From: a virus
Taxonomy: Duplodnaviria > Heunggongvirae > Uroviricota > Caudoviricetes
Strand: one strand, 5' to 3'
IMG/VR virus record: IMGVR_UViG_3300021256_000055
Span: 199,124-258,524 of that record
DNA: 59,401 bases
The notes below the pieces were generated by a model. That model was not told the origin of the DNA and searched no databases. It saw nothing but the letters and a program-made list of their open reading frames with translations. The position numbers and the translations under genes were made by a program. Shown here one piece after another: positions 14,307-35,462 of the stretch (positions are counted from its first letter, which is position 1; each line of letters opens with the position of its first letter).

Positions 14307-14585
14307 TTAGCTGAGCTTACTGATGGCCTGGAAAGCTTTAGAGATGTTCTCAGCCTGTTTAGCCTGGTCATCTGGAAGTAAAGAGTTACATTCAGTGATG
14401 ATGAGACTTGTAAGTAAGAACTGACATTTGAGAGCGATTTTGGCCATCTCAGTTATAATCATATTGAACTGAGTTTCATTGAACTTACCAGATTCGAGAT
14501 CAGCCTTAGCCTGAGTCTGGGTAAGGTTGGCTCTGTCCAGCATACCACGGATGTTATGGATTGTGTCTGAAGTTATAACAGTCAT
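14307..14585 (-). CDS. Hypothetical helical protein
   Basis: Own promoter, leader GUAAACAAAUAAC, GGAGG SD. Confidence 0.75.
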   Translation of the reverse strand: MTVITSDTIHNIRGMLDRANLTQTQAKADLESGKFNETQFNMIITEMAKIALKCQFLLTSLIITECNSLLPDDQAKQAENISKAFQAISKLS

Positions 14586-15886: not shown

Positions 15887-16025
15887 AATTTAACCTCACT
15901 AAGTTTATTTTGTTTACAATAATAATATGTTAATAGTTCTATAGAAGTATAAAATAATAGAAAAACTCTTCTAATCTGACAGACTAGAAGAGTTTAGTAA
16001 ACAAATATTTATGAGGTGAACATTA

Positions 16026-16412: not shown

Positions 16413-16529
16413 AGTCTTAACCTCCAACCAGGTATTATTCGTTTACAGTTATAATATGTAGACAGTTCTATAGAAGTATAAAGCTAAAGTAAAACTTTCT
16501 AGTCTTATTTAACTAGAAAGTTTTTTAAA

Positions 16530-16760
16530 CTAGGAATTTAATTCATCAAAGCCTTTACGAGCTTCTGCTTTATCAAGAATATCACGGATCTGTATGAGAG
16601 CGCTGGTGATGGCATTGTATTCACCATTAGAAATCTTGTCATCGTAATACATATTGCTTGCTACGACAAGCACGCCATCTTTGAGAGCATCGAGCTCTTC
16701 ACGTGTTCTTCCGTCCTTAAGCTGACTAAGTGTAAGTTTGTTTGCTTTATCCAAATCCAT
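16530..16760 (-). CDS. Hypothetical helical protein
   Basis: AGGAG SD and promoter. Confidence 0.75.
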   Translation of the reverse strand: MDLDKANKLTLSQLKDGRTREELDALKDGVLVVASNMYYDDKISNGEYNAITSALIQIRDILDKAEARKGFDELNS

Positions 16761-16853
16761 ACGATTCTCCTGTACTCTTATAATATGTGAATAATACTAC
16801 AGAAGCATAAAAAATCAGAAAAGCTAATTTCTAACTTTTCTGATTTAACTATT

Positions 16854-17336
16854 CTAGTTTTTAGGCAATTCGCTTTCTTTAATGTAGTGGTCTGTGAATA
16901 ACTGTGAATCGTAAATATTCGGCATGACAATTTCATCCCAGTCGTCGATTTCTGGATCATAGTACTCATATTTGTACTTCTTCAGGAGCGCTGCAAACTC
17001 AGCCTTAAAGTCATTAAACTTTTCAGCAGAGAAGAAGTTTGTAGCTTCAACTTTCAGGTCATCTACTATACTTTCGATATGCTGTTCAATGCTATTTTCA
17101 CCTGATCCAGGACGAACTTCATTCCATAATGCTATTGCCTGAGCTTTTGAGCGATGCTCTGACTTTTCAATATCATGATTCTTGTCAAAGTATACTTCAG
17201 CAAAATCCGCAGACTTTCTTGTGATTCCGCCTTCCAGATTTATATCACAGCTTACATGAATCATGATATGCATGTTTGTCTCATTTGAACCAAATCCACA
17301 GTAAACTGTTTTATCAAAAGTTTTTCTTGTAATCAT
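16854..17336 (-). CDS. Hypothetical protein (start moved to MITRKT)
   Basis: GGAGG SD; coupled to the upstream stop. Confidence 0.75.
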   Translation of the reverse strand: MITRKTFDKTVYCGFGSNETNMHIMIHVSCDINLEGGITRKSADFAEVYFDKNHDIEKSEHRSKAQAIALWNEVRPGSGENSIEQHIESIVDDLKVEATNFFSAEKFNDFKAEFAALLKKYKYEYYDPEIDDWDEIVMPNIYDSQLFTDHYIKESELPKN

Positions 17337-17337
17337 C

Positions 17338-17571
17338 TTAGTCCTCCTGTGAATCAGCATATTCATCCATAAGCTCGAAGATTTCGATAAGCTCAGGATA
17401 TTCAATCATCGCAGCAAGCTTAGCATTTTCTTCGTCCCATTCAGCCTGGTTTTCTTCAGTGATATAACACTCGCCCCAGCTTTCATTTTCATCTGCAAGA
17501 TAGAACTCTGAGCTTGCAAATGCGCTTGTTGCCATAAGAATTGTTACTAAAGTCAAGATAATCTTTTTCAT
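17338..17571 (-). CDS. Signal-peptide-bearing acidic protein; leaderless start
   Basis: MKKIILTLVTILMATSAFA signal-like; ATG is at the predicted +1. Confidence 0.7.
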   Translation of the reverse strand: MKKIILTLVTILMATSAFASSEFYLADENESWGECYITEENQAEWDEENAKLAAMIEYPELIEIFELMDEYADSQED

Positions 17572-17609
17572 ATTTATAATATGTGAATTATTCTGCAGAA
17601 GCATAAATC

Positions 17610-17870
17610 TTATTTAGAAATTCTGTTCCAATATCCTTCTGTACCAGGATGATTTGCCCATTCTTTACAGAAGTTCTGGAATGCGATATGCTCTTCAAGG
17701 GAAAACTCTTTTACCTTTTCACTCTGCCAAATGATCTTGCTGTTCTCAATAATCTGGTAGTACACAACATCATTCTCATGTTCCATACGAAGTACCAGTC
17801 TAGCAATAACTTTGATGAACTCAGCAAAAATAGCTAAAATACCGATTATGGCTAAAATAGTTTTAATCAC
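17610..17870 (-). CDS. N-terminal TM hypothetical protein
   Basis: GTG start, GAGG SD. Confidence 0.65.
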   Translation of the reverse strand: MIKTILAIIGILAIFAEFIKVIARLVLRMEHENDVVYYQIIENSKIIWQSEKVKEFSLEEHIAFQNFCKEWANHPGTEGYWNRISK

Positions 17871-17940
17871 GATTATACCTCACTTATTATAATATGTAAA
17901 TTATTCTACAGAGGCATAAAAACTTTTCTGACTTTTCTGA

Positions 17941-18183
17941 TTAGAGCCAATCTACAGTAAGGATTCTTTTGTCTGATTTATCGATCCCAGCAATGGTATA
18001 ATTGGTATAGCCAGCTTCATCTAAAGCTCTTTTTATACCCGGAACGTCATATTTTGATACTGTAGTAGTTACATAAAACTTGCCGGATTCCGCAGCTTTA
18101 CGTATAGCTTCCTCAAGCTCTTCAACCGTGTCGCTAGTAGCATTAGCTGTTGCAATAGCTTTAGCTTCTTCCATGCTAAGCAT
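17941..18183 (-). CDS. Hypothetical protein (paralog of 32661..32912)
   Basis: EAK..A.A ... IEEAIRKAAESGKF pattern. Confidence 0.7.
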   Translation of the reverse strand: MLSMEEAKAIATANATSDTVEELEEAIRKAAESGKFYVTTTVSKYDVPGIKRALDEAGYTNYTIAGIDKSDKRILTVDWL

Positions 18184-18192
18184 ATAATCCTC

Positions 18193-18495
18193 CTAAGCTT
18201 TCTTCTCCAAGCTTACACTAGCGCCGAAGTACTGTTCATCCGTGAGGTATATTGTATGAACTGCTACACTCACGCCACCTGAAGACCAGGACGATTTATC
18301 AGTTCTAACTAATACTCCAGCTGGGAGCTTTAATACATCTGTATTATCGTCAAGCTTCATTTTTGTACCAACTGGGGAGTTTATAGTAAACTTCTTATCT
18401 ATGGACATATAATCGTCCTCCTCTATAAAATCATTCTCAAAGCTTTTAGCAAAAGCTTCATCGATCTCATCAAAATTATCTGTGCAAATACTCAT
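18193..18495 (-). CDS. Hypothetical protein
   Basis: 100 aa in operon. Confidence 0.6.
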   Translation of the reverse strand: MSICTDNFDEIDEAFAKSFENDFIEEDDYMSIDKKFTINSPVGTKMKLDDNTDVLKLPAGVLVRTDKSSWSSGGVSVAVHTIYLTDEQYFGASVSLEKKA

Positions 18496-18521
18496 ATAAG
18501 TATATTTGCACAGATACTCAA

Positions 18522-18755
18522 TTATTTATTGCAGAGCTCACCAACCTTAAAGAGAAAATCCCTAAAGGATACATCCGTGTACTCTGGAGTATCCTGAAAC
18601 CAGGAGTTATAGCCATCCACCATAACGCCCCATAAGTCTGGAGTTTCTTCAGGAGTAATACCCTTATCTAAGGCTTCTTTAACCTGAGCTTTCGTCATAC
18701 CAAGCTCAAGCGCATTGTTGAGGGAACTCTCAACATATATTTCAAGTTCTTCCAT
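18522..18755 (-). CDS. Hypothetical acidic protein
   Basis: AGGA SD. Confidence 0.7.
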   Translation of the reverse strand: MEELEIYVESSLNNALELGMTKAQVKEALDKGITPEETPDLWGVMVDGYNSWFQDTPEYTDVSFRDFLFKVGELCNK

Positions 18756-18764
18756 AAGCTTTTC

Positions 18765-19031
18765 CTATTTGAATAAATATGGCCTTACCAGTCTTTCAAC
18801 CTGATTGTTCAAGGCATTTGGATCGGACATCTTATAGTCGGCAGTCTTAAACAAAAATGTTACTTTATTTGGTGTTTTGATATACACGAAGTCATCATCT
18901 TTATGTTTATCTTCCAAAAGTTTGATTGAAGTTTCAATCTCTTCTGTACCAAGTCCACATGGGTTATGGAAACTAAGTGTCATATAGTAACCAAGTCTAT
19001 AACCGTTTTTCTTTGTGTAGATCCTTTTCAT
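18765..19031 (-). CDS. Hypothetical protein
   Basis: Promoter at about 19060-19095; GGGG SD before MKRIY. Confidence 0.65.
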   Translation of the reverse strand: MKRIYTKKNGYRLGYYMTLSFHNPCGLGTEEIETSIKLLEDKHKDDDFVYIKTPNKVTFLFKTADYKMSDPNALNNQVERLVRPYLFK

Positions 19032-19093
19032 ATCTATACCCCACAAGTTTATTTGTTTACATTTATAATATGTCTATAGAACTTTAGAAGTAT

Positions 19094-19289
19094 AAAAAAT
19101 GCCCACTCTATTTCTAAAGTGGGCTTATCACTAATAGGCAGTGTAAGAACTACAGGGTGGTCGAATGTCCCGTCCAACTACTTCGTGCTCCCGGTTGCCG
19201 TTCAGTAGCCTCGCTCGCCTTTCAATTACTTGTCTACTTTCACCCGCTAAAGTGATTTCAACTTTCATCTACTTTCGTTTCGCTCTTAC
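19094..19289 (-). ncRNA. Candidate ~195-nt small RNA
   Basis: Array promoter (+1 at 19289), no SD or ORF, ends in the GCCCAC/GTGGGC hairpin plus U tract. Confidence 0.6.
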
Positions 19290-19345
19290 ATATATAATAT
19301 GTTTTTAATATTGTCAAAGTCTAAAAACTCTACAGACCTTTCTAA

Positions 19346-19645
19346 CTATTTAGAAATTTCCTTCCATTCAATTCCAAGTTTGATTCTTAAACCATATTCA
19401 TGTTTGATTATACTAAGGATTTGTTTAATATTTGAGTCGATTACTCCATTAGTAAGAATAAGAGTGGCACTTATTGTATCTTTGATTTCAGTTACAAGTA
19501 CATCTTCCAAAGACTTTAATGGATTTTGTTCAAGAGACCTATTGATACGTTCTCTCAAGGCATCTTTGAAAGCCTTCTTATTTTGTGATTTGATTTTAAG
19601 TGGTAAAATCCATTTGTAGTATAACAATGAAGAAAGTTTTTTCAT
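19346..19645 (-). CDS. Hypothetical protein
   Basis: GGAGG SD and promoter. Confidence 0.7.
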   Translation of the reverse strand: MKKLSSLLYYKWILPLKIKSQNKKAFKDALRERINRSLEQNPLKSLEDVLVTEIKDTISATLILTNGVIDSNIKQILSIIKHEYGLRIKLGIEWKEISK

Positions 19646-19746
19646 ACTCTACCTCCATTCTACATTTATAATATGTAGACGGATCTGTAGAAGTATAAAA
19701 AAATAAAAAGACTAGTCTAACTAGACTAATCTTTTCTAAAGAAAAA

Positions 19747-20073
19747 TTATCTTATAGTAATAATTCCAGGCTGTTCAGTAGCTTGTTTTCGACCAAAATA
19801 AGTAAGATTAAACTTAATTTTCTTCAAGTTATCTTTAATTATATTTTGTCTTCGAGCTTCCAGCTTAGAAATTACTTTGAAGATCTCAGCCTCTAGATCG
19901 GCCGTTTTTCTTTTACCAAACTTTACATCTTCTTTTCCGGCCAGTAACTTTCCATAACTAATCATATTGAACTTAATAGAATTAAGATTCTTATATACGA
20001 TTGCTTGAGCTTCTGGACCAAGTCCACTAACCTGTTGATAGATTTCAAATTCGAGTTCTTCTGATTTAGACAT
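19747..20073 (-). CDS. Hypothetical helical protein
   Basis: GTGAGG SD and promoter. Confidence 0.75.
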   Translation of the reverse strand: MSKSEELEFEIYQQVSGLGPEAQAIVYKNLNSIKFNMISYGKLLAGKEDVKFGKRKTADLEAEIFKVISKLEARRQNIIKDNLKKIKFNLTYFGRKQATEQPGIITIR

Positions 20074-20136
20074 AGATTAACCTCACTTATAGTTTATTTG
20101 TTTACAACTATAATATGTAGATTAATCTATAGAAGT

Positions 20137-20529
20137 CTATTTTACAAAAGTAAGATTTAAATAATTCGCAAATGCCTGACAGTCATAGAACTTGTAAGGT
20201 ACTGAACGTGCATAATGGAGCATCTGCTCGTAGTTATACTTTTTAGTAGCCTGCATGTAAACTGCCTGTGTCAGGTTATTAAAGTGAACTTCAATCTCGT
20301 CTTCGAAGTCCTCAGCTGCGATGTCTCTACCCCAGTTGCCGTGTTCATCTGCAACCTGCAAGTGTGCATAGCGTACACGATTTCCTGATTCGTCCTCACT
20401 ATCTGGGTCTTCCCGGATAGATGCTCGATAAGTTTTTCCTTCGTAACGGAAGTGAACTGCGTTTCCACCCCACCATTTTTCTTTACGTACGCGGGTGATT
20501 TTTATTTTTGAACCGTCAAATGGCTGCAT
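20137..20529 (-). CDS. Hypothetical protein
   Basis: GGAGG SD and promoter. Confidence 0.75.
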   Translation of the reverse strand: MQPFDGSKIKITRVRKEKWWGGNAVHFRYEGKTYRASIREDPDSEDESGNRVRYAHLQVADEHGNWGRDIAAEDFEDEIEVHFNNLTQAVYMQATKKYNYEQMLHYARSVPYKFYDCQAFANYLNLTFVK

Positions 20530-20613
20530 TTTGCGCCTCCCTTTATTTGCTTACATATATAATATGTAAACAGTTCTGTAGAAGCACAAAAACTTTTCTG
20601 ATCAATCTAACTT

Positions 20614-20865
20614 CTACAGTTTTACGATATTGGTGATAGTTACGCCACTTATCATAATATCAAAAGGTCTAGTCTGTTGCTTCTCGAACTCATCACTTAG
20701 TTTTGTTTCCAGGTCCCTTAGCCATTCCTTAACGTCATCTTCTGTCTTAAAGACTGGAACTTCTTTTATAGAATGACTATCATACTGACTAGGGTGGCTT
20801 GAGTATGTTATAATATCTTTTACAAAGTAAGCGACAGAATAATAAATTATTGCAAAATGTTTCAT
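20614..20865 (-). CDS. Hypothetical protein
   Basis: GGAGG SD. Confidence 0.7.
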   Translation of the reverse strand: MKHFAIIYYSVAYFVKDIITYSSHPSQYDSHSIKEVPVFKTEDDVKEWLRDLETKLSDEFEKQQTRPFDIMISGVTITNIVKL

Positions 20866-20873
20866 CGAGCCTC

Positions 20874-21197
20874 CTACGCTGCAAGATTCAAGTTGAACTT
20901 CTTACAAAGTTTCATAAACTTGATACGCTTCAATTCAAGCGTTCTTTTATTCTGTTCTGTCGGCGCGAGCTCATGATTCCAAGATGCCTTAAAATAATCG
21001 CTTGCTGTCTGAGTAATTGCTGCAGCGTTCTTATTAGCCTGCTTAATGCTTTTTCCATCTGTAATCGACTGAAGATAAACTGCTTTTGCAATTCCTTCAG
21101 CAAAATCAATATTTGCCATACTTAACCTCAAATATAATATGTCTGTAGAAGGTTTAAAGTATAAAAAGTGGAATAACATCCGTGTCATTCCACCCAC
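20874..21197 (-). CDS. Hypothetical protein (start uncertain)
   Basis: GAGG SD before an internal MANID suggests a shorter product. Confidence 0.6.
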   Translation of the reverse strand: MGGMTRMLFHFLYFKPSTDILYLRLSMANIDFAEGIAKAVYLQSITDGKSIKQANKNAAAITQTASDYFKASWNHELAPTEQNKRTLELKRIKFMKLCKKFNLNLAA

Positions 21198-21204
21198 TAC
21201 TTGA

Positions 21205-21306
21205 CTAAGCGACTTTCTTGATGTTAGATACTTCTTCTTTGTATCCGATAACCATCATAATTGCACAAGCGCCTGTAATTACACCTGTTACGATAAGTGT
21301 TGCCAT
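21205..21306 (-). CDS. 33-aa membrane peptide MATLIVTGVITG... (not in track)
   Basis: GGGG SD, promoter at about 21335-21370, one TM segment. Confidence 0.6.
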   Translation of the reverse strand: MATLIVTGVITGACAIMMVIGYKEEVSNIKKVA

Positions 21307-21390
21307 AGTAGCCCCCTAATTTTTATTTTGTATTTATAATATGTAAATAAGTCTGTAGAAGTATGAAAACTCTACAGACTTTTCTGACTT

Positions 21391-21699
21391 TTAATCTTTA
21401 TACAAATCTTCGTAATGACAGATTGCTTCTTCAAGGTGTCTGATCATCTCACGACATACTTTAACACCGATCCAGCCTTCAAGTACTTCGCTGTCTACTC
21501 CGTCAAGAGCGCAAGTAATTTCGGCATCTGGAACATCAACGCCAGCCTTTGGAATCCAGTGTGCTTCATCATGAAGAGCATCTCTTACAAGACGAACAGA
21601 TTCGTTTCTTGCGTCATCAGTTTTATTCCAGATTTCTTCCATTTTCAGGTTGACAAATCCGTCAAGCACCTGACTTGGTCGTTCTTTAAGTTCAGCCAT
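21391..21699 (-). CDS. Hypothetical protein
   Basis: GGAGG SD and promoter. Confidence 0.75.
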   Translation of the reverse strand: MAELKERPSQVLDGFVNLKMEEIWNKTDDARNESVRLVRDALHDEAHWIPKAGVDVPDAEITCALDGVDSEVLEGWIGVKVCREMIRHLEEAICHYEDLYKD

Positions 21700-21797
21700 A
21701 CGCTAACCTCCGTTTGTTTACATATATAATATGTCAGCGGATCTACAGAAGTACAAAAACTTTCTAGTCTGTCACAACTAGAAAGTCTTTGATTGAA

Positions 21798-21995
21798 TTA
21801 AAGAGTTTCTTCCCAGAATTCCCAGCCGTACTCGTGCTTATCTGTGTTAATGTTGATCTCGTCTTTGTCGTAGTCTGATAAGAACTCTTTACGTTCTTTT
21901 TTTGTTCTGAAGATATGTTCAGATGAACTGAGTGGCATACCATCAGAATACTCACATACATAACGACAACCATAAACTTTAACTGTTTCGCTCAT
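21798..21995 (-). CDS. Hypothetical protein (paralog of 15677..15886)
   Basis: Sequence similarity; SD and promoter. Confidence 0.75.
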   Translation of the reverse strand: MSETVKVYGCRYVCEYSDGMPLSSSEHIFRTKKERKEFLSDYDKDEININTDKHEYGWEFWEETL

Positions 21996-22110
21996 AAGCT
22001 TAACCTCACATGTTATTTGATTTACAAATATAATATGTGAATAGTTCTATAGAAGTATAGAAAATAAAAACTTTCTAATCTAACTAGACTAGAAAGTTTT
22101 TTATATTACT

Positions 22111-22491
22111 TTATTTCAAATATTCTTGAATTTTACTTCCGAGTGTATATAACATAATATCAGACTTCTTGGCACGATTTATAAAAGTTCTGAATGTACA
22201 ATAACCGATTTTTTCCCATCCCATTTCTTTAATTTTCTTATAATCAAAGTTATCATGGTTGAAGACTACTCGAAGGTTACCACCTCTTGGGTAGATTATA
22301 AGATACTTATTGTGATACTCAGGCATATTCCAACGAATACCTTTTTCGAGAATACCATCTTTAACAGCCACATCTAATTTAGAACAAAGAATCTGATTCA
22401 ACTGGTTCTCAATGTCTTTAACATCTGAGTTTGCCTGTTTTCGAATCAACTTTGCCACTTTCAAAGATTCTTTTAATTCTTTTACATCCAT
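22111..22491 (-). CDS. Coiled-coil family protein
   Basis: AKLIRKQANSDVKDIENQL is identical in 30561..30956. Confidence 0.8.
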   Translation of the reverse strand: MDVKELKESLKVAKLIRKQANSDVKDIENQLNQILCSKLDVAVKDGILEKGIRWNMPEYHNKYLIIYPRGGNLRVVFNHDNFDYKKIKEMGWEKIGYCTFRTFINRAKKSDIMLYTLGSKIQEYLK

Positions 22492-22608
22492 AATTTAACC
22501 TCACTAAGTTTTATTTGTTTACAAATATAATATGTGGTTAGTTCTATAGAAGTATAGAAAAATAAAAAAAACTTTCTAGTCTTATTTGACTAGAAAGTTT
22601 TTTGAATG

Positions 22609-22983
22609 TTAGTCTTCGTCTTCTTCGTCTTCTTCGCTCTCATTAAACTCATTGTTAGCAATAATGTCGTCAAGCCATCTTGCTCCTAGTTGCATTTTGA
22701 GAGGCATGCAGTCTTCAACATCTTCAAGAGCAATGCTGACAATGTTAAGATGCTCTGGATAAGCGTTGTCTCCAGTAAGCTTAGAGAACTCATTCATCTC
22801 TTTTCCTGTTGTAATATAAATGCGACGATTTTTCCAGTGACAAAGCTTTTCAACGCGATACTCAAAGTTATTGAGATTCTTAGCAGACATGTTAAAGCCT
22901 TCCCAAGTAGCTGCAGAGCCTAGATAGCATAAGTAGTCTGAGCCTGAACTAAGTGTTTTAGATTCAATAATTTCTAATGACAT
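22609..22983 (-). CDS. Hypothetical protein (paralog of 38264..38710)
   Basis: LTGDNAYP..L.IVS..L, RW.DDI and an acidic tail are shared. Confidence 0.8.
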   Translation of the reverse strand: MSLEIIESKTLSSGSDYLCYLGSAATWEGFNMSAKNLNNFEYRVEKLCHWKNRRIYITTGKEMNEFSKLTGDNAYPEHLNIVSIALEDVEDCMPLKMQLGARWLDDIIANNEFNESEEDEEDED

Positions 22984-23095
22984 ATAAGTCCTCCAAAAGA
23001 ATTATTTGTTTACATTTATAATATGTCAATAGCTCTACAGAAGTATAAAATAAAAAAACTTTCTAATCTAACTAGACTAGAAAGTTTTTTGTAAA

Positions 23096-23296
23096 CTAAT
23101 CGTAGATGAAGATATTTCCTTTTCCAGCGTCCGGAATAAGATCGACAGGTGTTTCAACAGCTTCCGGGTCTTCAGCTTTTTCCAGCTCTTGAATCAAGCG
23201 CTTGCCATGTGTGCGCCGATTCTTATTGCTCCACTTCTTAGCCTCTCGACCAGGCCAATACCAGCCTTTCTTATGGTCGTTATAGCTACGACTCAT
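23096..23296 (-). CDS. Small basic hypothetical protein
   Basis: MSRSY...AKKWSNKNRR; GGAGG SD. Confidence 0.7.
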   Translation of the reverse strand: MSRSYNDHKKGWYWPGREAKKWSNKNRRTHGKRLIQELEKAEDPEAVETPVDLIPDAGKGNIFIYD

Positions 23297-23305
23297 ATGA
23301 ACCTC

Positions 23306-23596
23306 CTAACAGTCATCTGAACCGTAAGCGTTAGCCATTACGTAAGCGTTCCAGTCATCATCATCTTCTGGCTCATCGTCGTCATCTGAATCTTCTTCAA
23401 GATCGACCATGCTGAAGTCATAAGATTCTGGTTCGCAGTCGTGAATCTGATCAACACTGTGATACTCAGTTCTCACTTCAATAATGTCATTAAGCTTTTC
23501 AATAGAGTACCCGTTGATTTTTGTTACCAGCTGGCACTCTTCTTCGGTTGCAATGTTATTCTGGATGATAAAATCCCAAACCTGTTCTGTAGTCAT
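23306..23596 (-). CDS. Acidic hypothetical protein
   Basis: GGAGG SD 7 nt before MTTEQ. Confidence 0.75.
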   Translation of the reverse strand: MTTEQVWDFIIQNNIATEEECQLVTKINGYSIEKLNDIIEVRTEYHSVDQIHDCEPESYDFSMVDLEEDSDDDDEPEDDDDWNAYVMANAYGSDDC

Positions 23597-23679
23597 TTTC
23601 ATGCCTCCATTATTTGTTTACATATATAATATGTCTACAGAACATAGAAAGCACAAAAATGATTTTCTAATTTATCTAG

Positions 23680-24018
23680 CTAAACTAGAAGAAGTGTTTG
23701 AAGGTGCTGTGATACTTGCGCAGCAAATTTGTTTGCATCTGCAAGAGCTTTGATCATCCGAGTAGACGGAATAGGATTTGAGCTCATCCCCCATGTAACT
23801 GTAGTTGTTCGAGGGAAATAGAGTACTTTGTCTTTATCTTCTTTATCAAAAGAATCAATACGGATTGATACAACGCAATCATCAGCTTCCGAATTTTTCT
23901 TAGTTTTTACTTCAAACTTATGATAAAGCTTATTATAAATGTTTGTGTCCTGGATTTCAATAAGCTCAAAGTTATTATCTTCCAAAACAACTTTTCTAAA
24001 GATTTTCTGTTCAGCCAT
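23680..24018 (-). CDS. Hypothetical protein
   Basis: 112 aa with SD. Confidence 0.7.
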   Translation of the reverse strand: MAEQKIFRKVVLEDNNFELIEIQDTNIYNKLYHKFEVKTKKNSEADDCVVSIRIDSFDKEDKDKVLYFPRTTTVTWGMSSNPIPSTRMIKALADANKFAAQVSQHLQTLLLV

Positions 24019-24073
24019 CTTAGCTTCCTATTGCAAAGTTTTAGCTCCAGCCATACGGCCAGAGCATTTGAGC

Positions 24074-24376
24074 TTAGAGCTTCTGGCAGATTTCCTTCCA
24101 GTTGTCCTTAAGCTTTACAAGCCAGCCAGTACCAAATCCAATTGGAATTTCCTTGCTGAGTACTTCATCAAACAAGTCTCTTTCAAGAATATCCAAAGTT
24201 TCCTGGTTTATCTTGTAGGCTGGGACGAAAATACAATTTTCATCAGTTGGCTTCATTCCATAGCCAGCTAAGCAAACTGAAACGTCACACCAAGGTTCGC
24301 CATCTTCAGTGAGAGCCTGAATATAAGTTGAACCATCTGCAACATAGGTCGAGCGACCATAACTAAGCTTTTCCAT
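24074..24376 (-). CDS. DUF4313-like protein
   Basis: YIQALTEDGEPWCDVSVCL...FV...G.G pattern. Confidence 0.55.
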   Translation of the reverse strand: MEKLSYGRSTYVADGSTYIQALTEDGEPWCDVSVCLAGYGMKPTDENCIFVPAYKINQETLDILERDLFDEVLSKEIPIGFGTGWLVKLKDNWKEICQKL

Positions 24377-24488
24377 TTTAGCTCCTTGCTATTTGATTTA
24401 CATATATAATATGTAATCAATTCTGTAGAAGTATAAAAGCTTAAAAAACTATTCTAACTTTTTTAGCTAGAATAGTTTTCTAAAAAGC

Positions 24489-24782
24489 TTAAACTTCTTT
24501 AACAGTATAACAATCAGCTGGAAGATCTTGTACGCAGATTACCTGCTGACCTTTGCATTCACCAGCGATACCAACTTTGCGAAGCTTTACTTTACCAGTA
24601 TTGATCGCATTCATTGCTTTTTTCAAATCAATTTCAGCATAAGACTTTTGATCGTGGCTATAGCACTTGTGTGTCTTTTGCTTCATTGCCATTTCATAAA
24701 ATTTAAGTACATCCATGCTGGCAAACTGATAAAGTGTACCAACGGCTTCTTTTGAAGCTCCAGTGTTATGTGTTTTATTCAT
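24489..24782 (-). CDS. Hypothetical protein; leaderless start
   Basis: ATG at the predicted +1. Confidence 0.7.
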   Translation of the reverse strand: MNKTHNTGASKEAVGTLYQFASMDVLKFYEMAMKQKTHKCYSHDQKSYAEIDLKKAMNAINTGKVKLRKVGIAGECKGQQVICVQDLPADCYTVKEV

Positions 24783-24823
24783 ATTTATAATATATGAATA
24801 AAACTATAGAAGTATAAAATCTT

Positions 24824-25195
24824 CTAGTATTTTATTTCAAATGATACGGTATTAAAATCCACATCAGTGTCCACACCATCAGTACTTAATCTATTATAGT
24901 CTGGAAGTCCATTTGAACAACGTTCAATATATAAAAATTCAGCGCGGAAGTCTGGATGCTTATTGAGTTCTTTTAACACTTCATTAACACAAAGAGGCTT
25001 AGTTACATTTTCAGCGCGTTCAATATCAAAAACAATTACTTTATCTGAGTAGCCAACATCAGCAACTCCAGTAATGTAATATTCAACTGGAACTGGAAGC
25101 GCGCAAAGTGCAGTGTCCATATGATAAAGTCGGACTTTATTAAAACCGACACCGTGTTTTTTATATTTAAGAAGGTTTTCTGCGAAAGTATTCAT
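24824..25195 (-). CDS. Hypothetical protein
   Basis: GGGG SD and promoter. Confidence 0.7.
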   Translation of the reverse strand: MNTFAENLLKYKKHGVGFNKVRLYHMDTALCALPVPVEYYITGVADVGYSDKVIVFDIERAENVTKPLCVNEVLKELNKHPDFRAEFLYIERCSNGLPDYNRLSTDGVDTDVDFNTVSFEIKY

Positions 25196-25282
25196 AATCT
25201 TACCCCTATTATAATATGTAAATAAATCTATAGAAGTAAAAAATAAGGTTGGACTTTTCTAGCTAGTCCAACCTTCTACAGA

Positions 25283-25888
25283 TTAGTGTTCAATTATTAC
25301 AATCTGGTCACCCTTTTTAGTTGCCCAACATCCTGTGTTTTTCTTTACACAATTCATGCAATGTCCACCACAAGGTTTTGCATTCGAGCTTGCTGTTGTT
25401 GTGCCATCAGCAAAGAACACGTGAGCCTCAGGAAGCTTGTGTGGATTAGGCATTTCAAGTCCTCTCCACTTGCTGAACAGGATATGCAGGTTGCTTGGCA
25501 AGCGGTGTCCTTCGTCCAGATATTCGTTTACCATTTCATATCTTTTTGTAAAGCAAAGTACCTGGCAATGCTTGTTCTTACGAGCTGCTTTAACCATGTT
25601 CTCAAGGTACTTACGGTTAGGAATATCGCCTGACACATGGAAGCGAAACTGCTCAGCTGTTGCCATCGCAGCATTTACTTCGTTCCAGTACTGATCTGGA
25701 TTGTGAAGCAAGATTCTTAAGTTTCTTGCGATTGATTCTTCAACAACTCCAAACTTGAAGCGTCCACGATTTGCATAACAGATTTTTGTGCATTCGCAGT
25801 CTCCGCGACATGTTTTAATTGCAGGCAAAGATACTGAAGGGATTGTACCCATTTTAGAATTGCCTCTTGAAACGCAAATATGTTCCAT
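25283..25888 (-). CDS. GP88-like Cys-rich (probable Fe-S/metal-binding) protein
   Basis: GNSKMG, TC...C...CYA, FRFHVSGDI and C..C..C...CW motifs. Confidence 0.65.
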   Translation of the reverse strand: MEHICVSRGNSKMGTIPSVSLPAIKTCRGDCECTKICYANRGRFKFGVVEESIARNLRILLHNPDQYWNEVNAAMATAEQFRFHVSGDIPNRKYLENMVKAARKNKHCQVLCFTKRYEMVNEYLDEGHRLPSNLHILFSKWRGLEMPNPHKLPEAHVFFADGTTTASSNAKPCGGHCMNCVKKNTGCWATKKGDQIVIIEH

Positions 25889-26032
25889 TTTTATGCTCCT
25901 ATAGCTTATTCGTTTACATATATAATATGTAAATAGCTCTACAGAAGTATAAAAAACAAATAAAAATAGTCGGATCTTCTGATCCGACTTTTCTAACTTC
26001 TAATAGTTTTGAAGCTTATCTACCTTTGTTTT

Positions 26033-26482
26033 TTATTCCTCATCATCATCGAATATATCATCAATATGTTCATAGCTAATACAGCTGTGATAAAGAATGT
26101 CTCCAGTAGTTTCATCTTCAATATGAACTATAATAGAGTCATCATCCTTGTGCATAATAATGTGTGCAACTCCGCCTGGAACATCAATAGTTTTTAATCC
26201 GTCCACAAACATTCGTTCAAAAAAGCTTGCATCTTTTTTTACGGTTAAGTCACAATAATGTGCATCTAAAACCGCAAACTGGCCAGAATCAAAGTCGTAG
26301 GTATGACATTCGTCATCAAGCATTTCGAGATCACCATGGCCTGTAGGCAAACAAATACCAAGCCCTGGAACATTAGCTCCGTCGTTACCTGCACAAATCT
26401 GGTCGTAGGAATGACCCTTAATTACATAACAAGGATCACCTAAATATAATTTATTTGTATGTAAAGTAATTTCCTGCTTCAT
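26033..26482 (-). CDS. Acidic hypothetical protein (GDPCYV motif)
   Basis: LYLGDPCYVI; lacks the array promoter but has CTAATT upstream. Confidence 0.7.
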   Translation of the reverse strand: MKQEITLHTNKLYLGDPCYVIKGHSYDQICAGNDGANVPGLGICLPTGHGDLEMLDDECHTYDFDSGQFAVLDAHYCDLTVKKDASFFERMFVDGLKTIDVPGGVAHIIMHKDDDSIIVHIEDETTGDILYHSCISYEHIDDIFDDDEE

Positions 26483-26545
26483 ATAATAATTCCTTATAAG
26501 ATAATTAGCTAAAATAGTCCCAGTGGACTGGGACTTTTAAGTGAC

Positions 26546-26770
26546 TTAAGCTACAAACTTTTTGTTAAGTTTTGAATCTTTCTTATAGATTTCAAGAGCA
26601 TACTTCATAGCTGACTTGAACTCCTTCTCAATTCTTGAACGTTTTCCAGCTTCTACTTTATATGAGCCGTCCTTCAAGTGAGCGATCATTGGTACATGCT
26701 CGTGTGATGAGCATACTGAGTACCATTTTCCATTGATGTTTTCTTTAGTCCACTGATAAGCTTTAGCCAT
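26546..26770 (-). CDS. Hypothetical protein
   Basis: GTGAGG SD and promoter. Confidence 0.75.
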   Translation of the reverse strand: MAKAYQWTKENINGKWYSVCSSHEHVPMIAHLKDGSYKVEAGKRSRIEKEFKSAMKYALEIYKKDSKLNKKFVA

Positions 26771-27050
26771 AATTTTAACCTCACTAAGTTTTATTCGTTT
26801 ACATATATAATATGTATTTAGTATTAGAAAAGTACAAAAACTCTACAGACTTATCTGATTTAAAAAAAGAAAGGACAAGCCAACGACTTGTCCTTTCAAA
26901 ATGTAAACAAATAACACAGGAGGTCATCTGGGAAAGCGGTCTTAACTCGTCGTAGCCTTGGTGGGCTTTTACCTCACCAACTAGCTGATAAGATGCAGGC
27001 CATTGCGTATCCTTGCACGTTACCGGCTCCCTTGATAATTCTGTGAATAG

Positions 27051-27125
27051 CCAAGATGGTAGGACTTGAACCTACACCTACAGACACCCGAAGTGTCGCG
27101 CTTCTACCAATTAAGCTACATCCTG
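27051..27125 (-). tRNA. tRNA-Arg(UCG), no encoded CCA
   Basis: Acceptor CAGGATG/CATCTTG; D arm GCTT/AAGC; anticodon loop CT-TCG-GG; T arm GTAGG-TTCAAGT-CCTAC. Confidence 0.85.
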
Positions 27126-27156
27126 TAATTTTTAGTGGCCGAAGCCACTTTTGTTA

Positions 27157-27384
27157 TTATAAACCAAGTCTAGGTTTTACTTTACCAAACCACTCACCAT
27201 CAATGGCACCCATACAAGACCAGTAGTTCTTGAACGCTCGTCCATTCCAGTAGTAGTAGTCATCTCGCATCTCAACTGTCCAGATATACACTCGAGCTTT
27301 GTCGCCATTTTTCATTGCCTCAAAAAGAGACTGAGCGCCCGGGTACTCTTTGTCACCTAGTTGAAATCTTACAATATTATTCAT
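27157..27384 (-). CDS. Hypothetical protein
   Basis: GTGAGG SD at the transcript start. Confidence 0.7.
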   Translation of the reverse strand: MNNIVRFQLGDKEYPGAQSLFEAMKNGDKARVYIWTVEMRDDYYYWNGRAFKNYWSCMGAIDGEWFGKVKPRLGL

Positions 27385-27485
27385 ACTTCACCTCACATAT
27401 ATAATATGTTTTCTATAGAAGTAAAGTACAAAAATTAAGGCAAGTCAATAATTTTTTTGTTTTGTCTGACTTGCCTTATACGGCT

Positions 27486-27734
27486 TTACGCGTTGATTGT
27501 AACGTTGTAACCGTATGCTTTGTAACGGTTTTCAACACCGTTGTCGTTTGAGCCAGTGCTCTGTGTACCAGCAGCTGCAGCCTTGATGTTTACAGTAGCT
27601 GATGCCATAGTCTTAGCCTGTTTTGTATTGCCGTGGAAATATCCAGCAGCCTGTTTGATTGATACGAAAGAAAGCTTTTCAGCAGACTTTCCCTTGCCTT
27701 TAGTCATTACGACTTTAGCCTTTGTTCTTGCCAT
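27486..27734 (-). CDS. Small basic protein with NUMOD1/IENR1-like F.S.K.AA.Y motif (putative DNA-binding)
   Basis: FVSIKQAAGYF...I..A; similar to 28911, 54447 and 55141. Confidence 0.6.
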   Translation of the reverse strand: MARTKAKVVMTKGKGKSAEKLSFVSIKQAAGYFHGNTKQAKTMASATVNIKAAAAGTQSTGSNDNGVENRYKAYGYNVTINA

Positions 27735-27825
27735 ATAATTGGCCTCCGAAATGTTATTTTGTTTAGCTTTTCAGCTTACATATATAATATGTAATTATCT
27801 ATGTAGAAGTCCAAAAAGTTTCCAT

Positions 27826-28007
27826 AAAATTCACAACTTCATTTCGCCAATTTAGTTTAATAGCCGGCATCTAAATCAGTTACTTTACTTGGTGAGTCCA
27901 GGCGGCTGAGCGAAGTCCGCATCCCCATCGGTGGTAAGCCGAGTGTGCTACAAACTCTTACACTATGGTCTCTAAGTTGTGAACTTTATGCAAGCTTTTC
28001 AGCTTAC
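27826..28007 (-). ncRNA. Candidate ~180-nt structured RNA
   Basis: Promoter +1 at 28007; 14-bp closing helix 27974-27987 with 27826-27839; no SD-led ORF. Confidence 0.6.
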
Positions 28008-28059
28008 ATATATAATATGTTTTTAACTATGTAGAAGTACAAAAACATATCATATATTT

Positions 28060-28251
28060 TTAATTGTATGCTTCAGAACGACAATTGTAGAAGCATTCCC
28101 AGTAATAATTCCAGTCAGCTTTGTCTACCTCAAACCCATCGTCCTTACAAATGTGTTTGAATTCATCAAAGTCATCTGAATCCATTGGATGGCCAGATTC
28201 CCAACCTTCACGGGCAAAATTTTTAAGATATTTTCTTTTTTTATCGTCCAT
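28060..28251 (-). CDS. Small acidic hypothetical protein
   Basis: GAGG SD at +1. Confidence 0.7.
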   Translation of the reverse strand: MDDKKRKYLKNFAREGWESGHPMDSDDFDEFKHICKDDGFEVDKADWNYYWECFYNCRSEAYN

Positions 28252-28312
28252 ATTTACCTCAGTTATAATATGTTATTTATTCTGTAGAGTTCTAAAAACT
28301 CTACAGACTGAT

Positions 28313-28858
28313 CTAACACATTTTTCTGAAGATGGAATCATCAGCGGGTTTGTATTCATCGAGAGACTGCCAAGCGCGATTATAGATTGCAAAACTTGGA
28401 AGTTCAACACCAGTAGGCATTAAATTGTCAAATACATATAAGCGGTTATGTTTAAGTCCTTCAAACTCATAGTCGCGTGCCATTGATTCCATACACTCTT
28501 TATCTTTTTTGGACTTAATTGAAAGTGATAAACCATCAATATAATGGAAGGTTCCACCCTTCATTATATAACGTTCACAGTCATAAGCGTTTCCGTAAAC
28601 AATAACTTGTTTAATATTTGGATAACGTTTTTTATAGTACTCCGCAAGATCATCCACCGCAGCATACCTGAATGGTTCACCACCAGTAAGGAATAAGCGC
28701 TCACATTGCTTGAGCTCGTCTTCGGTTGCGTAAGGAATTTCATTAAGTGTATAAAGATTATTACAGCAATTTGGACATTTTCTGTCACAAAGTGGAGTAA
28801 CCATTAAATGAATATTTTTAACAGTTTTATCCGTTTTTTCATTTAAGATTGTTGTCAT
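28313..28858 (-). CDS. Radical SAM-superfamily protein (short, NrdG/QueE-like size)
   Basis: CDRKCPNC CxxxCxxC motif; LTGGEPF. Confidence 0.8.
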   Translation of the reverse strand: MTTILNEKTDKTVKNIHLMVTPLCDRKCPNCCNNLYTLNEIPYATEDELKQCERLFLTGGEPFRYAAVDDLAEYYKKRYPNIKQVIVYGNAYDCERYIMKGGTFHYIDGLSLSIKSKKDKECMESMARDYEFEGLKHNRLYVFDNLMPTGVELPSFAIYNRAWQSLDEYKPADDSIFRKMC

Positions 28859-28910
28859 AATTAAATCCTATAAAAGCGGCCCAGCCACTAATGTGGCCAG
28901 GCCTTTTGGA

Positions 28911-29144
28911 TTACTTCAATTTTTCAATTGAGTAACCGTAAGCGGTGTTACGATTGAACATCTTTGAGCCACCCTGGTGATCTCCACCAGAACCTATACC
29001 AGCAAGAGTGTCTGAAATGTTCTTCTTTGCAGAATTAACACTTGCAGCCTTCTTAAAGTGTGCCATGTAAGCAGCAGCCTGGTCTACTGAAGTGAACCTC
29101 AAAGTTCCATCGTCATTTGTAAAAGCAAGTTTCATAAGAACCAT
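28911..29144 (-). CDS. F.S.K.AA.Y family putative DNA-binding protein
   Basis: FTSVDQAAAYM...AYGY shared with 27486. Confidence 0.65.
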   Translation of the reverse strand: MVLMKLAFTNDDGTLRFTSVDQAAAYMAHFKKAASVNSAKKNISDTLAGIGSGGDHQGGSKMFNRNTAYGYSIEKLK

Positions 29145-29250
29145 CCTTTATTATTTGATTTACATATATAATATGTGATTTATTCTATAGAAGTACAAAA
29201 AATATAAAAACTCTTCTAACCTTTCTGATTAGAAGAGTTTTATAAAAGAT

Positions 29251-29409
29251 TTATTTTTTCAATTTAGCCAGCCAATCGGCACATGCATCAACTGATTCAT
29301 TTTTGTAGAGCACTTTTACAGTACCACAGCAAGTAGATAATTCTTCCTGCGTCCAAATATGGTACTTGTCTGGGCTGGGATCAAGCGGTAACATTACAAC
29401 ATAATGCAT
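29251..29409 (-). CDS. 52-aa hypothetical protein (not in track)
   Basis: GGAG SD upstream; follows 29419 gene. Confidence 0.55.
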   Translation of the reverse strand: MHYVVMLPLDPSPDKYHIWTQEELSTCCGTVKVLYKNESVDACADWLAKLKK

Positions 29410-29418
29410 TTGATTCTC

Positions 29419-29922
29419 CTATTCAATCTGAAAAGTGTCTACGTCGTCTTCAAGATCAGCTTCCAGCATATCAAACTTTTCACCGGTCTTTTTATCTTCA
29501 AGTACAACCTGAGAGTTAGCCCATGCTTCTCCCCAGCCGCCACCATCCTGTTCCAACTTCAAAGTAAGTTCGTGCTTCTTTAAGAGCGCTTTAAGATCAT
29601 CGAGGAAAGCGTCTTTGCGTTCATTGAAAATAGCTTTTTTGTACTTTGCAATAGCACTGTCAATATACTGCTTATCAACGCTTGCGCAATCAAACTGCTT
29701 GCCGAACTTCTTGAAAAGTGCATTTACTTGGCTTGGAGTACCAAAAGAGCAGTCTCCAGGTTTTGCAGTTCTTGTAGAATTACCCTTTTCAAAAACGTAA
29801 TAGCGTTCCTTAATACGGGCTTTATATTCGTTGTTTTTTTCAGTAACATCTACTGTATAACGATAGTGGTACTTACAACCATCACCATACTGTGAATAGC
29901 TAAAAGGAAATTCAACTTCCAT
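29419..29922 (-). CDS. Hypothetical protein
   Basis: GGAGG SD before MEVEFP. Confidence 0.75.
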   Translation of the reverse strand: MEVEFPFSYSQYGDGCKYHYRYTVDVTEKNNEYKARIKERYYVFEKGNSTRTAKPGDCSFGTPSQVNALFKKFGKQFDCASVDKQYIDSAIAKYKKAIFNERKDAFLDDLKALLKKHELTLKLEQDGGGWGEAWANSQVVLEDKKTGEKFDMLEADLEDDVDTFQIE

Positions 29923-30027
29923 ATCAACCTCCATTTGTTTACATTTATAATATGTGGATAGTTCTATAGAAGTATAAAAAAATAAAAAAAACTTTCTAGT
30001 CTGTTACAACTAGAAAGTCTTTAAGGA

Positions 30028-30441
30028 TTATGCTGACCTAATGCGATTTAAGAACTCTGGATTAAGTTCACCTTTATTATACAAGTCAATCAGCTGTCTT
30101 TTGATTTCGTCTTTGATAGGACGGGTCGAGTATACACAACCAGTGAATGCATTGCCTTTCTTTTCTTTTGGCATACTTGAAAGAATGTTTGTACCAATTT
30201 CAATTGTTTGGCCATACCAAGAATCAGGCTTCTTTAATGAAATTTTTACTTTTTCGCCTTTAATTTCCACATCATCGCATCCAGCACCCCAGCTCATAAC
30301 GTGTCCATCTCTGGGAGCTCTAAGTAGGAAAGTAACCCAATGCTTATTTATTATAGCGCTTACTTTAATTGGGTTTTTATAGGTATCAAAGATTTCACTC
30401 TGGTAGATACCAATATGTGAAATAGCAAAGCCTCTAGGCAT
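30028..30441 (-). CDS. Hypothetical protein (paralog of 50463..50891)
   Basis: FTG..YST.P.K and EFL C-terminal motifs shared. Confidence 0.75.
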   Translation of the reverse strand: MPRGFAISHIGIYQSEIFDTYKNPIKVSAIINKHWVTFLLRAPRDGHVMSWGAGCDDVEIKGEKVKISLKKPDSWYGQTIEIGTNILSSMPKEKKGNAFTGCVYSTRPIKDEIKRQLIDLYNKGELNPEFLNRIRSA

Positions 30442-30560
30442 AATCTAACCTCCGTTATTGTTTACATATATAATATGTAATTTAATCTACAGAAGTATAA
30501 AAAATAAAAAACTTTCTAGTCTATCACAACTAGAAAGTTTTTATTGAAGTTAGTTTTGAA

Positions 30561-34646: not shown

Positions 34647-34799
34647 AAGGATTTCCTCCGTTTTATTTGTTACATATATAATATGTAAATAGACCTATAG
34701 AAGTATAAAAACTCTACAGACTTATCTGATTTAAATAAAAAAGACCTGAGACTATTAACAATAATCTCAGGTCAATGTAAACAAATAACTAGAGGTCGT

Positions 34800-35462
34800 C
34801 TAGAGTTTTACAATGTCATATCCGAGTGAGTTTGCAAGAGCACGAAGATTTTTGATTACTTCAGACTCGTCAGCTGAGCTTTCTGAAGAGCCACTTGAAG
34901 TTCCACCTACCACTATACCAAGGAATCCGCGGTCTGGATCAATTCCTTTTTTGTATGCAACACTCATTGCAGAATAGGCAGTACGGCTTACACTTGCGCT
35001 GCTACTTGAGCGTGACAAAATTCCAAGAATTTGAGCTGGAATAATTGCCATAGCTTCTGGATCAGTGTAATCTGTTTCAGATACTGTATCAGCAAGTTTG
35101 TCCTGTTCGTCTTCAGTCAATCCTTTCAAAAACTTAATAGTTTTTTCAAGGTCATCTCCGACAATTTTTTTAGGATCGAGCTGTCCGAGCCAGCAATAAA
35201 CATTACTTGTATTAAACATCTTCCAGCAGTCATTAAACTCTGGTAAACCTTCACCACGTTTTGGCATATGGTCAAGAGGCTCATAACTTCTCAACTGATA
35301 AAGTACATCGTCAATAGAATGATTTGAATTGAATAAGACCTTTCCAAGTGAGATACCACCAAAGCGGATTCTCTTGTTGCCTTCAAAAGTCTGCCCAGTA
35401 ACAGCTACGATTTTGATGGATTTTTTGCCCATCTGATTTTTGTATGCAAAAAGTTCAATCAT
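34800..35462 (-). CDS. Hypothetical protein, 220 aa
   Basis: GGAG SD and promoter; 3' UTR carries an anti-leader element. Confidence 0.8.
   Translation of the reverse strand: MIELFAYKNQMGKKSIKIVAVTGQTFEGNKRIRFGGISLGKVLFNSNHSIDDVLYQLRSYEPLDHMPKRGEGLPEFNDCWKMFNTSNVYCWLGQLDPKKIVGDDLEKTIKFLKGLTEDEQDKLADTVSETDYTDPEAMAIIPAQILGILSRSSSSASVSRTAYSAMSVAYKKGIDPDRGFLGIVVGGTSSGSSESSADESEVIKNLRALANSLGYDIVKL

Follow-up and report, generated by a model that had tools for sequence, protein, structure and literature searches.

The 3′ external transcribed spacer of the Escherichia coli glyW-cysT-leuZ precursor, 3′ETS-leuZ, is a tRNA-trailer RNA that sponges RyhB and RybB; RNase E produces it, and it acts together with Hfq (bioRxiv 10.1101/2021.04.25.441314). 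The C4 RNA of phages P1 and P7 is an antisense RNA and a substrate of RNase P (PMC11143913). Here we analyse a candidate RNA element of a jumbo phage of the Caudoviricetes that shares features with both, namely an inverted copy of the leader and Shine–Dalgarno (SD) sequence common to many early mRNAs, named here the ‘anti-leader’. It lies in the trailer behind a tRNA-Arg gene in a 59,401-nucleotide stretch of DNA (the window), which forms the last 59.4 kb of the 258.5-kb IMG/VR virus record IMGVR_UViG_3300021256_000055. The sequence of the anti-leader and its return at the 3′ ends of other transcripts of the phage point to an RNA brake or tag that would act on the whole early gene set.

Like 3′ETS-leuZ, the trailer derives from the 3′ side of a tRNA precursor, ends with a Rho-independent terminator and holds a predicted single-stranded pairing region, so that by analogy 3′ETS-leuZ is the RNA that it would be most like in its working. 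It differs in that its predicted partners are the leaders and SDs of dozens of mRNAs, in that it is phage-encoded and carries a copy of helix 11 (h11) of 16S ribosomal RNA (rRNA), and in that its seed also ends mRNAs. With C4 it shares the character of a phage antisense RNA that is released from a longer transcript by a tRNA-processing enzyme (presumed in the present case) and would cover a ribosome-binding region. The targets of C4 lie in its own operon (icd/ant), whereas the target here is common to many separate transcription units and the RNA stands behind a real tRNA. CpxQ, SroC and DapZ are small RNAs derived from 3′ untranslated regions (UTRs), with a seed next to the terminator and each with few unrelated targets; two 3′ UTRs of the phage, at 16.0 and 34.8 kb, likewise consist of seed and terminator, but here several transcripts carry one common seed against one common leader. 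The T4 RNAs rnaC and rnaD (species 1 and 2) are small stable RNAs of unassigned function that come from a tRNA-cluster precursor, and by this description the trailer resembles them as a phage RNA co-transcribed with a tRNA and cut from the precursor; to our knowledge, neither mimics rRNA or carries an anti-leader. New with respect to the known systems are the leader target common to dozens of genes, the presence of the seed on several transcripts and the fusion of one carrier to h11. We know of no arrangement in bacteria or phages in which one seed is directed against a leader common to dozens of genes.

The source phage, a rumen virus, was detected in numerous gut metagenomes and metatranscriptomes of bovine, goat and sheep origin. 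Its minus strand carries, from about 12.9 kb onwards to the window end, an array of small genes, each preceded by a near-identical promoter, (AAGTCTGTAGAG)TTTTTaTACTTCTaTAGAa-N7-ACATATTATAtat, of which at least 61 are found on that strand. A dyad, GTTTAC(A)-N-GTAAAC, spans the −10/+1 region of these promoters. The leaders of about 35 of the at least 61 units start with GUAAA(C) and follow the 12-nt consensus GUAAAC(A/G)AAUAA, which is followed, at a variable spacing of 0–15 nt, by a GGAGG-type SD.

At 26898–26925 the plus strand reads AAAATGTAAACAAATAACACAGGAGGTC, exactly as in a preliminary description of this locus, and the transcribed minus strand reads GACCUCCUGUGUUAUUUGUUUACAUUUU. An exact inverted copy of the shared leader and SD occupies 26903–26923, where the minus strand reads CCUCC-UGUG-UUAUUUGUUUAC, between tRNA-Arg, which lies 125 nt upstream on the transcribed strand, and a strong terminator. 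The anti-leader core UUAUUUGUUUAC (26903..26914, minus strand) is the exact complement of positions +1..+12 of the consensus early leader, and ACCUCC, with the anti-SD CCUCC (26919..26923, minus strand) as part of GAUGACCUCCU, stands 4 nt from this 12-mer. The trailer thus has the complementarity that the preliminary description ascribed to it, to the SD as well as to the very 5′ end of the leader, including a perfect 13-nt match to the leader of the 14307..14585 mRNA (start 14616). Its remark that the plus strand lacks the signals of a gene start also agrees with the sequence, in which no ATG occurs within 15 nt past the SD and no array-type −10 box (CATATTAT) upstream. The terminator is intrinsic, with a 13-bp stem GAAAGGACAAG...CUUGUCCUUUC followed by U7 (26862..26897, hairpin 26869–26897, minus strand).

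The trailer (26867..27048, minus strand, 181–182 nt) follows tRNA-Arg directly, on the same strand and in the same transcription unit, and its fold has a z-score of −2.9. In the predicted fold, the helix-11 domain is bracketed by a closing helix CACAG/CUGUG and the anti-SD is placed in an internal loop with a mean predicted unpaired probability of 0.74. A single-stranded linker of 17 nt, made up of the 12-mer and its flanks, leads to the terminator hairpin; its predicted unpaired probability of 0.97 is equal for the linear and the circular trailer. As modelled, this layout is that of a seed next to a terminator.

The module, defined as CCUC, 3–6 nt, UUAUUUGUUUAC, 1–5 nt and a terminator, is found also at 16.0 and 34.8 kb. 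The second module (15963..16018, minus strand) makes up the whole 3′ UTR of gene 16026–16412 and consists of CACCUC, AUAAA, UAUUUGUUUAC and a terminator. The third (34737..34799, minus strand) is the 3′ UTR of gene 34800–35462, with a mini-hairpin CUAGA/UCUAG, CCUCUAGUUAUUUGUUUAC and a terminator. All three copies in the phage lie 1–5 nt before the terminator hairpin and 3–5 nt after CCUC. Within the 46.5-kb array, the transcribed strand has two exact copies of UUAUUUGUUUAC and one with a single mismatch. In 300 first-order Markov simulations of the array, the mean was 0 for exact copies and 0.36 for copies with at most one mismatch, and only 0.3% of the simulations reached three or more; since three copies are rarely reached and exact ones never, the anti-leader copies are not a product of chance. 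The recurrence against terminators that had been proposed for about 16.0, 34.8 and 47.5 kb is thus non-random and stands for the first two sites. The 47.5-kb site had to be rejected as a module, since only ACCUCAC precedes the terminator there and the leader-like 12-mer lies behind it. Matches on the plus strand at 37766 and 42440 were likewise discarded as anti-leaders, being the left arm of the promoter's own dyad. At 23091–23102 (minus strand), CGAUUAGUUUAC stands directly before a terminator hairpin with no CCUC upstream; with one mismatch to the complement of the 37754 leader, it may represent a degenerate anti-leader.

No non-promoter copy of the 12-mer was found in direct orientation. 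This uniformity bears on the proposal that GTAAACAAATAA is a DNA operator, bound by a phage or host regulator at +1..+12 of the promoters, the inverted copies then serving as a roadblock or decoy. The dyad around −10/+1 is typical of operators, a double-stranded site would be conserved in either orientation, and the match extends into positions −1/−2 in three of five copies (GTTTACAT). We nevertheless consider an operator improbable, because all non-promoter copies are inverted and stand within 1–5 nt of a terminator, and because the CCUC conserved at a fixed distance is an RNA-level signal, whereas the spacing between 12-mer and SD in the leaders ranges from 0 to 15 nt.

Conservation was followed in orthologues of gene 34800–35462 with their flanks, at 78, 63, 57 and 48% protein identity, and in a 27-kb metagenome contig, L176, the one moderately diverged relative that a metagenome scan returned. 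The 19-nt core CCUCUAGUUAUUUGUUUAC of the 34.8-kb copy is 100% identical in all five relatives, while the coding sequence of the gene shows only 56–79% nucleotide identity (48% for the protein in L108). The adjoining terminator is 87–98% identical in the three nearer relatives and 57–71% identical in the two most distant ones, L107 and L108, in which the sequence of its stem is rewritten. Across the relatives L105–L108, the stem of the mini-hairpin is kept and its loop varies, the loop almost always ending in ACC, which leads into ACCUC; in three relatives the copy reads GAUCACCUC. In the window, this mini-hairpin (CUAGA-loop-UCUAG, 34789–34815, minus strand) overlaps the stop codon of gene 34800–35462, and its loop presents the ACC of the anti-SD. 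L176 contains an extra module, CCUC-AUAUAA-UUAUUUGUUUAC-AUUU-terminator (about 8055–8140, reverse complement), in a cassette without counterpart in the window.

The tRNA-linked copy was compared in strain-level variants and in L176. Its anti-leader is invariant in seven variants, the trailer body having four variable positions, and the terminator arms carry multiple changes and still appear to pair. At the tRNA locus of L176, identity to the window is 100% for the anti-leader and 98.4% for the trailer body, as compared with 68, 80 and 93% for the flanking genes. The unchanged core of the 34.8-kb copy shows the anti-leader to be under strong purifying selection. A 77% orthologue of the 16.0-kb gene, from a lineage with related promoters but non-GUAAAC leaders, has a 3′ UTR without anti-leader; this is a single case, of the kind to be expected if the two elements belong together. 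A 70% homologue of the same gene (L177–L179) was set aside as a relative, as its phage is without the array promoter system, and 67 IMG/VR matches to the anti-leader pattern were dismissed as chance, all being without the array promoter. Searches of GenBank phages gave no nucleotide or protein match, and IMG/VR scans with the CCA-enzyme gene, the promoter pattern, the 3′ half of the tRNA and the exact h11 29-mer gave no relatives.

The same data address the possibility that the inverted leaders are passive remnants of inversion or recombination between cassettes, or else belong to an invertible promoter flanked by inverted repeats; passive remnants at inversion breakpoints had been raised in the preliminary description as a ground for refutation. 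The array is indeed highly repetitive, and a promoter lies between the anti-leader and the next leader, which are inverted repeats spaced by about 100 bp. However, at 48% protein identity the 19-nt core is without any change next to a terminator that has been replaced, about 12 contigs from relatives share one orientation, and no strand-changing joint occurs among the RNA contigs. Conservation and uniform orientation largely exclude this explanation, which we regard as very improbable.

In agreement with the proposal that the leaders are a common target, pairing of −15 kcal/mol or better is predicted between the 26.9-kb anti-leader and 38 of the 61 leaders, with a mean pairing energy of −16.9 kcal/mol as compared with −8.7 kcal/mol for shuffled sequences; the 16.0- and 34.8-kb copies behave alike. 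The predicted duplexes cover +1 to about +12 and, in most leaders, the SD, with a bulge set by the leader spacer. The leader of its own unit, GUGAGGUGAAGUAUG, is without the 12-mer, and the best predicted partners are leaders of other units. Because the anti-leader fits the consensus better than its own or the neighbouring leader, action in trans is indicated. The anti-leader stays fixed among relatives while the leaders of the next cassette vary, and because the two do not co-vary, many targets are favoured over a single partner in cis. A complement of the mRNA 5′ end and the SD with set spacing, present each time on the transcribed strand and at a 3′ end, is the pattern to be expected of an RNA seed with multiple targets.

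These results have to be set against a function in cis, in which the anti-leader of a read-through transcript would fold onto the next leader about 100 nt downstream and insulate it, hiding the SD or making a site for a double-strand-specific RNase, so that the next gene is expressed from its own promoter only. Every copy is followed by a terminator, a promoter and a GUAAA(C) leader, which constitutes an inverted repeat about 100 nt apart, and the predicted pairing with the next leader at 26802 reaches −24 kcal/mol. Yet the anti-leader is invariant where the downstream leaders of relatives differ (GUAACAAAUAAAACGGAGG, GUAAACAAAUGGAGGUG and GUAAACAAAAUCAUAUGGAGG), and it matches the consensus better than the neighbouring leader. 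Moreover, only three or four of the many terminator–promoter junctions of the array carry an anti-leader (the minus strand has about 27 terminator-like sites between 14.0 and 33.9 kb alone). No RNase III gene was found in the phage, although the host enzyme could serve. We judge insulation in cis to be unlikely.

The unit that carries the trailer starts at an early array-type promoter (27396..27445, minus strand), whose short leader is GUGAGGUGAAGUAUG and which drives a 75-residue open reading frame, tRNA-Arg and the trailer; no further promoter lies between it and tRNA-Arg, nor between tRNA-Arg and the trailer. The open reading frame (27157..27384, minus strand) is the first gene of the unit and has only close homologues, at 95% identity or more. 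Pfam and PHROGs searches gave no match for the genes adjoining the anti-leader modules. Between the stop codon of this gene and the 5′ end of the tRNA lies a UUCG-tetraloop hairpin, GUGGC-UUCG-GCCAC (27134..27149, minus strand), which is 100% identical in L176 and may cap the upstream mRNA after cleavage by RNase P. The tRNA-Arg itself (27050/51–27125, minus strand) has the anticodon UCG and no encoded CCA; it is one of three tRNAs in the phage genome, all inside the window. In keeping with a CCA-less tRNA, the phage has a CCA-adding enzyme with a PolyA_pol head and an HD domain (45421–47028, minus strand).

Four metatranscriptomes from three studies were compared over 26000–28000, and each gave RNA contigs on or beside this stretch; by an index search, sequence words of the trailer are present in additional RNA libraries. 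In X15, which comes from the same sample as the source, a 156-nt contig covers 26874–27029 at 100% identity, and in X17 a single contig (record 12) spans the trailer, the tRNA and the upstream gene. Record 6 of X16, a rumen metatranscriptome, has 213 nt and is arranged differently: its first 112 letters correspond to 26937–27048 and its last 101 to 26867–26966, so that 27048/9 is joined to 26867/8, and the ends of the contig overlap by 30 nt (contig data from one run). An overlap of this size is expected for a closed path from an assembler with k=31, the value that we take to have been used for these contigs. The closed unit comprises 182 nt plus one inserted A and runs from 2–3 nt behind the tRNA discriminator to 1–2 U past the terminator stem. 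Its depth is 13, as compared with 2.5 for the contig that starts at 27050 and continues into the tRNA.

The joined molecules could be circular RNA, head-to-tail multimers, or linear RNA with 5′-phosphate and 3′-hydroxyl ends that was circularised during library preparation. Each of these origins implies a discrete trailer RNA with these ends, and a tandem duplication was not seen in any DNA contig examined. The contigs thereby indicate a discrete RNA of 181–182 nt, close to the ~190 nt put forward in the preliminary description, with one end 2–3 nt behind the tRNA and the other in the U-tract of the terminator. A depth of 1788 at 26938–27004 in X16 was rejected as a measure of expression, because it stems from contigs of real 16S rRNA, which also match the h11 copy. 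Contig breaks at hairpins and positions lacking RNA contig cover were likewise given no weight as evidence. The phage encodes two RNA ligases, one Rnl1-like (G000 116761–117438) and one Rnl2-like (G000 133965–134606), and no RtcB gene was found in it.

Between the tRNA and the anti-leader, the trailer contains a feature that the preliminary description had overlooked. A stretch of about 70 nt (26945..27012, minus strand; trailer nt 38–105) matches 468 plasmid or chromid records from many phyla at 79–87% identity, in sense orientation relative to the trailer RNA. In three of these records (L004–L006) the matched regions lie inside Rfam-confirmed 16S genes, at nt ~234–301, which correspond to helix 11 and its flanks (E = 8e-13). 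Read from the sequence and in agreement with the predicted folds, 13 of the 15 h11 pairs of the Rfam small-subunit rRNA (SSU) consensus are kept, and the upper stem has an A-C mismatch that real Oscillospiraceae 16S (L004) shares. The copy is the only rRNA-like stretch in the phage and is identical at 37–40 of 45 positions, alike to host 16S and to other phage copies, either of which may be its source.

Isolated h11 copies recur across unrelated phages, among them several cultured ones with unrelated hosts. A pattern for the h11 core is found in 74 IMG/VR contigs, and since 16S likeness is limited to about 41 nt in every one, they hold isolated copies rather than rRNA genes; blastn added such copies from Yersinia, E. 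coli, Klebsiella, Shewanella and Streptomyces phages. The phage copies share a hairpin core, UAGUUGGUGAGGUAA..GC.CACCAAGGC, with closing stems, in non-coding phage DNA. A stem closes the multi-branch fold in which the hairpin is predicted to lie in each of these phages. A compensatory U-A to A-U change is present in the copy of the E. coli phage, and the Rfam SSU model scores the enterobacterial phage copy at 32 bits as a local match, beyond which Rfam offers no family for the element. Unlike these copies, that of the present phage is placed behind a tRNA and fused to anti-leader and terminator, and its extra hairpin lies 5′ of h11, where the enterobacterial and Shewanella copies have it 3′. 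Moraxella phage Mcat16 was rejected as a further case, since its match is a real 16S-like stretch: the record (L084, KR093640.1, ~1157–6206) holds a long stretch like a genuine 16S gene of another organism, possibly through contamination or a chimeric assembly. Neither phage rRNA mimics nor phage helix-11 copies were found described in the literature searched. Behind the h11 domain, GAUGACCUCCU matches the 3′ end of 16S, GAUCACCUCCU, at 10 of 11 positions; taken by itself, this likeness is without significance, and any complement of an extended SD would be expected to show it.

The ribosomal protein uS17 binds h11, and the domain in the trailer may serve for stabilisation or for uS17 binding. 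The trailer might even act mainly through its helix-11 copy, by binding uS17 or some other factor that recognises this region of 16S, with the anti-leader merely tethering or stabilising it, as the 79–87% identity of ~70 nt to 16S h11, the recurrence of isolated copies across phages and the compensatory change in one of them could suggest. This is decidedly unlikely: two of the three anti-leader modules lack the helix-11 domain, from which it follows that the anti-leader has a role of its own, and no S17 gene was found in the phage. A scheme that joins the two elements would have a stable trailer, perhaps circularised by ligase, work as a ‘pseudo-16S’, in which h11 recruits a ribosomal or assembly protein and the anti-SD with its 12-nt anchor outcompetes the 30S subunit, in a regulon-wide post-transcriptional switch, together with the 3′ UTR modules, that would shut off or re-route the early genes. 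We regard this more elaborate scheme as unlikely.

We propose instead that the anti-leader modules pair as RNA with the shared leaders, in trans for the terminated transcripts and the released trailer, a model to which we give about an even chance of being right. The ordinary early promoter would transcribe the 75-residue gene, tRNA-Arg and trailer together, and the trailer would be cut off 2–3 nt behind the tRNA discriminator. RNase Z-type processing is the probable means, given a tRNA that lacks an encoded CCA and a phage that has a CCA-adding enzyme; RNase Z cuts CCA-less tRNA precursors just behind the discriminator. The trailer would then persist as a ~182-nt RNA composed of the h11 domain, a single-stranded anti-leader and an intrinsic terminator, its anti-leader combining a 16S-like anti-SD, ACCUCC, with the complement of the first 12–13 nt of the common leader. 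It is one carrier of a 3′-end module conserved in this phage group, with which two ordinary mRNAs, and one more in a relative, also end. Such pairing, covering the SD together with the 5′ end, would compete with the 30S subunit and alter translation of the early messages, their decay or both. A covered SD should block initiation, and a long duplex could be cut by host RNase III. In Firmicutes-type hosts, on the other hand, a paired 5′ end shields mRNAs from 5′-exonucleolytic decay (RNase J), and the effect may be either repression, in trans as first suggested for this locus, or 5′-end protection. The earlier interpretation is supported in part, by the exact complement, the recurrence, the signs of selection, the predicted single-strandedness and the indications of a discrete RNA, and has lost the 47.5-kb copy.

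Several observations weigh against the proposed RNA–RNA pairing or narrow its basis. The RNA evidence consists of assembled contigs, from which strand, true ends and levels are not readable and in which DNA carry-over is possible. The X17 contig reaches some 40 nt past the predicted start site on its upstream side, and because of this extension it fits read-through or DNA as well as co-transcription. The depth of the trailer is below that of neighbouring mRNAs (13 as compared with 26–54 in X16, and 5 as compared with 13 in X15); depth is a poor measure, and by it one-to-one silencing of some 35 strongly promoted messages looks unlikely. The tRNA-trailer copy is found only in close relatives, at 96–99% identity, and the non-coding block of ~390 nt around it (26771–27156) is 98% conserved in L176 as a whole. 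As similar conservation extends beyond the anti-leader to the whole block, recent recombination is possible for this copy. One close variant of the 34.8-kb copy has CAUC in place of CCUC, and a double-stranded DNA site bound by protein would be conserved just as the anti-leader is. As for h11, the Rfam SSU model gives no match to the copy in the trailer at E values up to 10 and nothing in the whole phage. Across Rfam, only the three tRNAs reach gathering scores, and a permissive search of 26700–27200 returned nothing in the trailer.

Further features of the array were noted alongside. In L090 (186–520), the cassette of tRNA-Arg, trailer and terminator precedes a different gene that lacks the usual promoter; on this arrangement, the tRNA-Arg cassette would therefore appear to move, or its neighbours to turn over. 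AAGTCTGTAGAG, which precedes many array promoters, is complementary to CTTCTACAGA of the promoter spacer. A hairpin family, AAAAACTTTCTAGTC-loop-GACTAGAAAGTTTTT, forms many of the array terminators (14251–30542, minus strand). At the predicted starts near 28007, 27779, 55651 and 19289 (minus strand), leaders begin with GUAAGCUGAA(A/U)... or GUAAGAGCGAAAC. The promoters at 28007 and 19289 (minus strand) have no SD or ATG within 45 nt, and they may make further small RNAs.

Early-to-middle switches of phages are usually explained by proteins acting on transcription. Here, the recurrent h11 copies of phages, of which the trailer holds one, raise the question of what they serve; and if the trailer is truly circular, a bacterial virus would make circular RNA from a tRNA trailer. 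A group of phages with one common early promoter and leader retains, under strict selection, an exact complement of this leader at the 3′ ends of a few transcripts; should these RNAs pair with the leaders, a single short seed could tune dozens of genes together.

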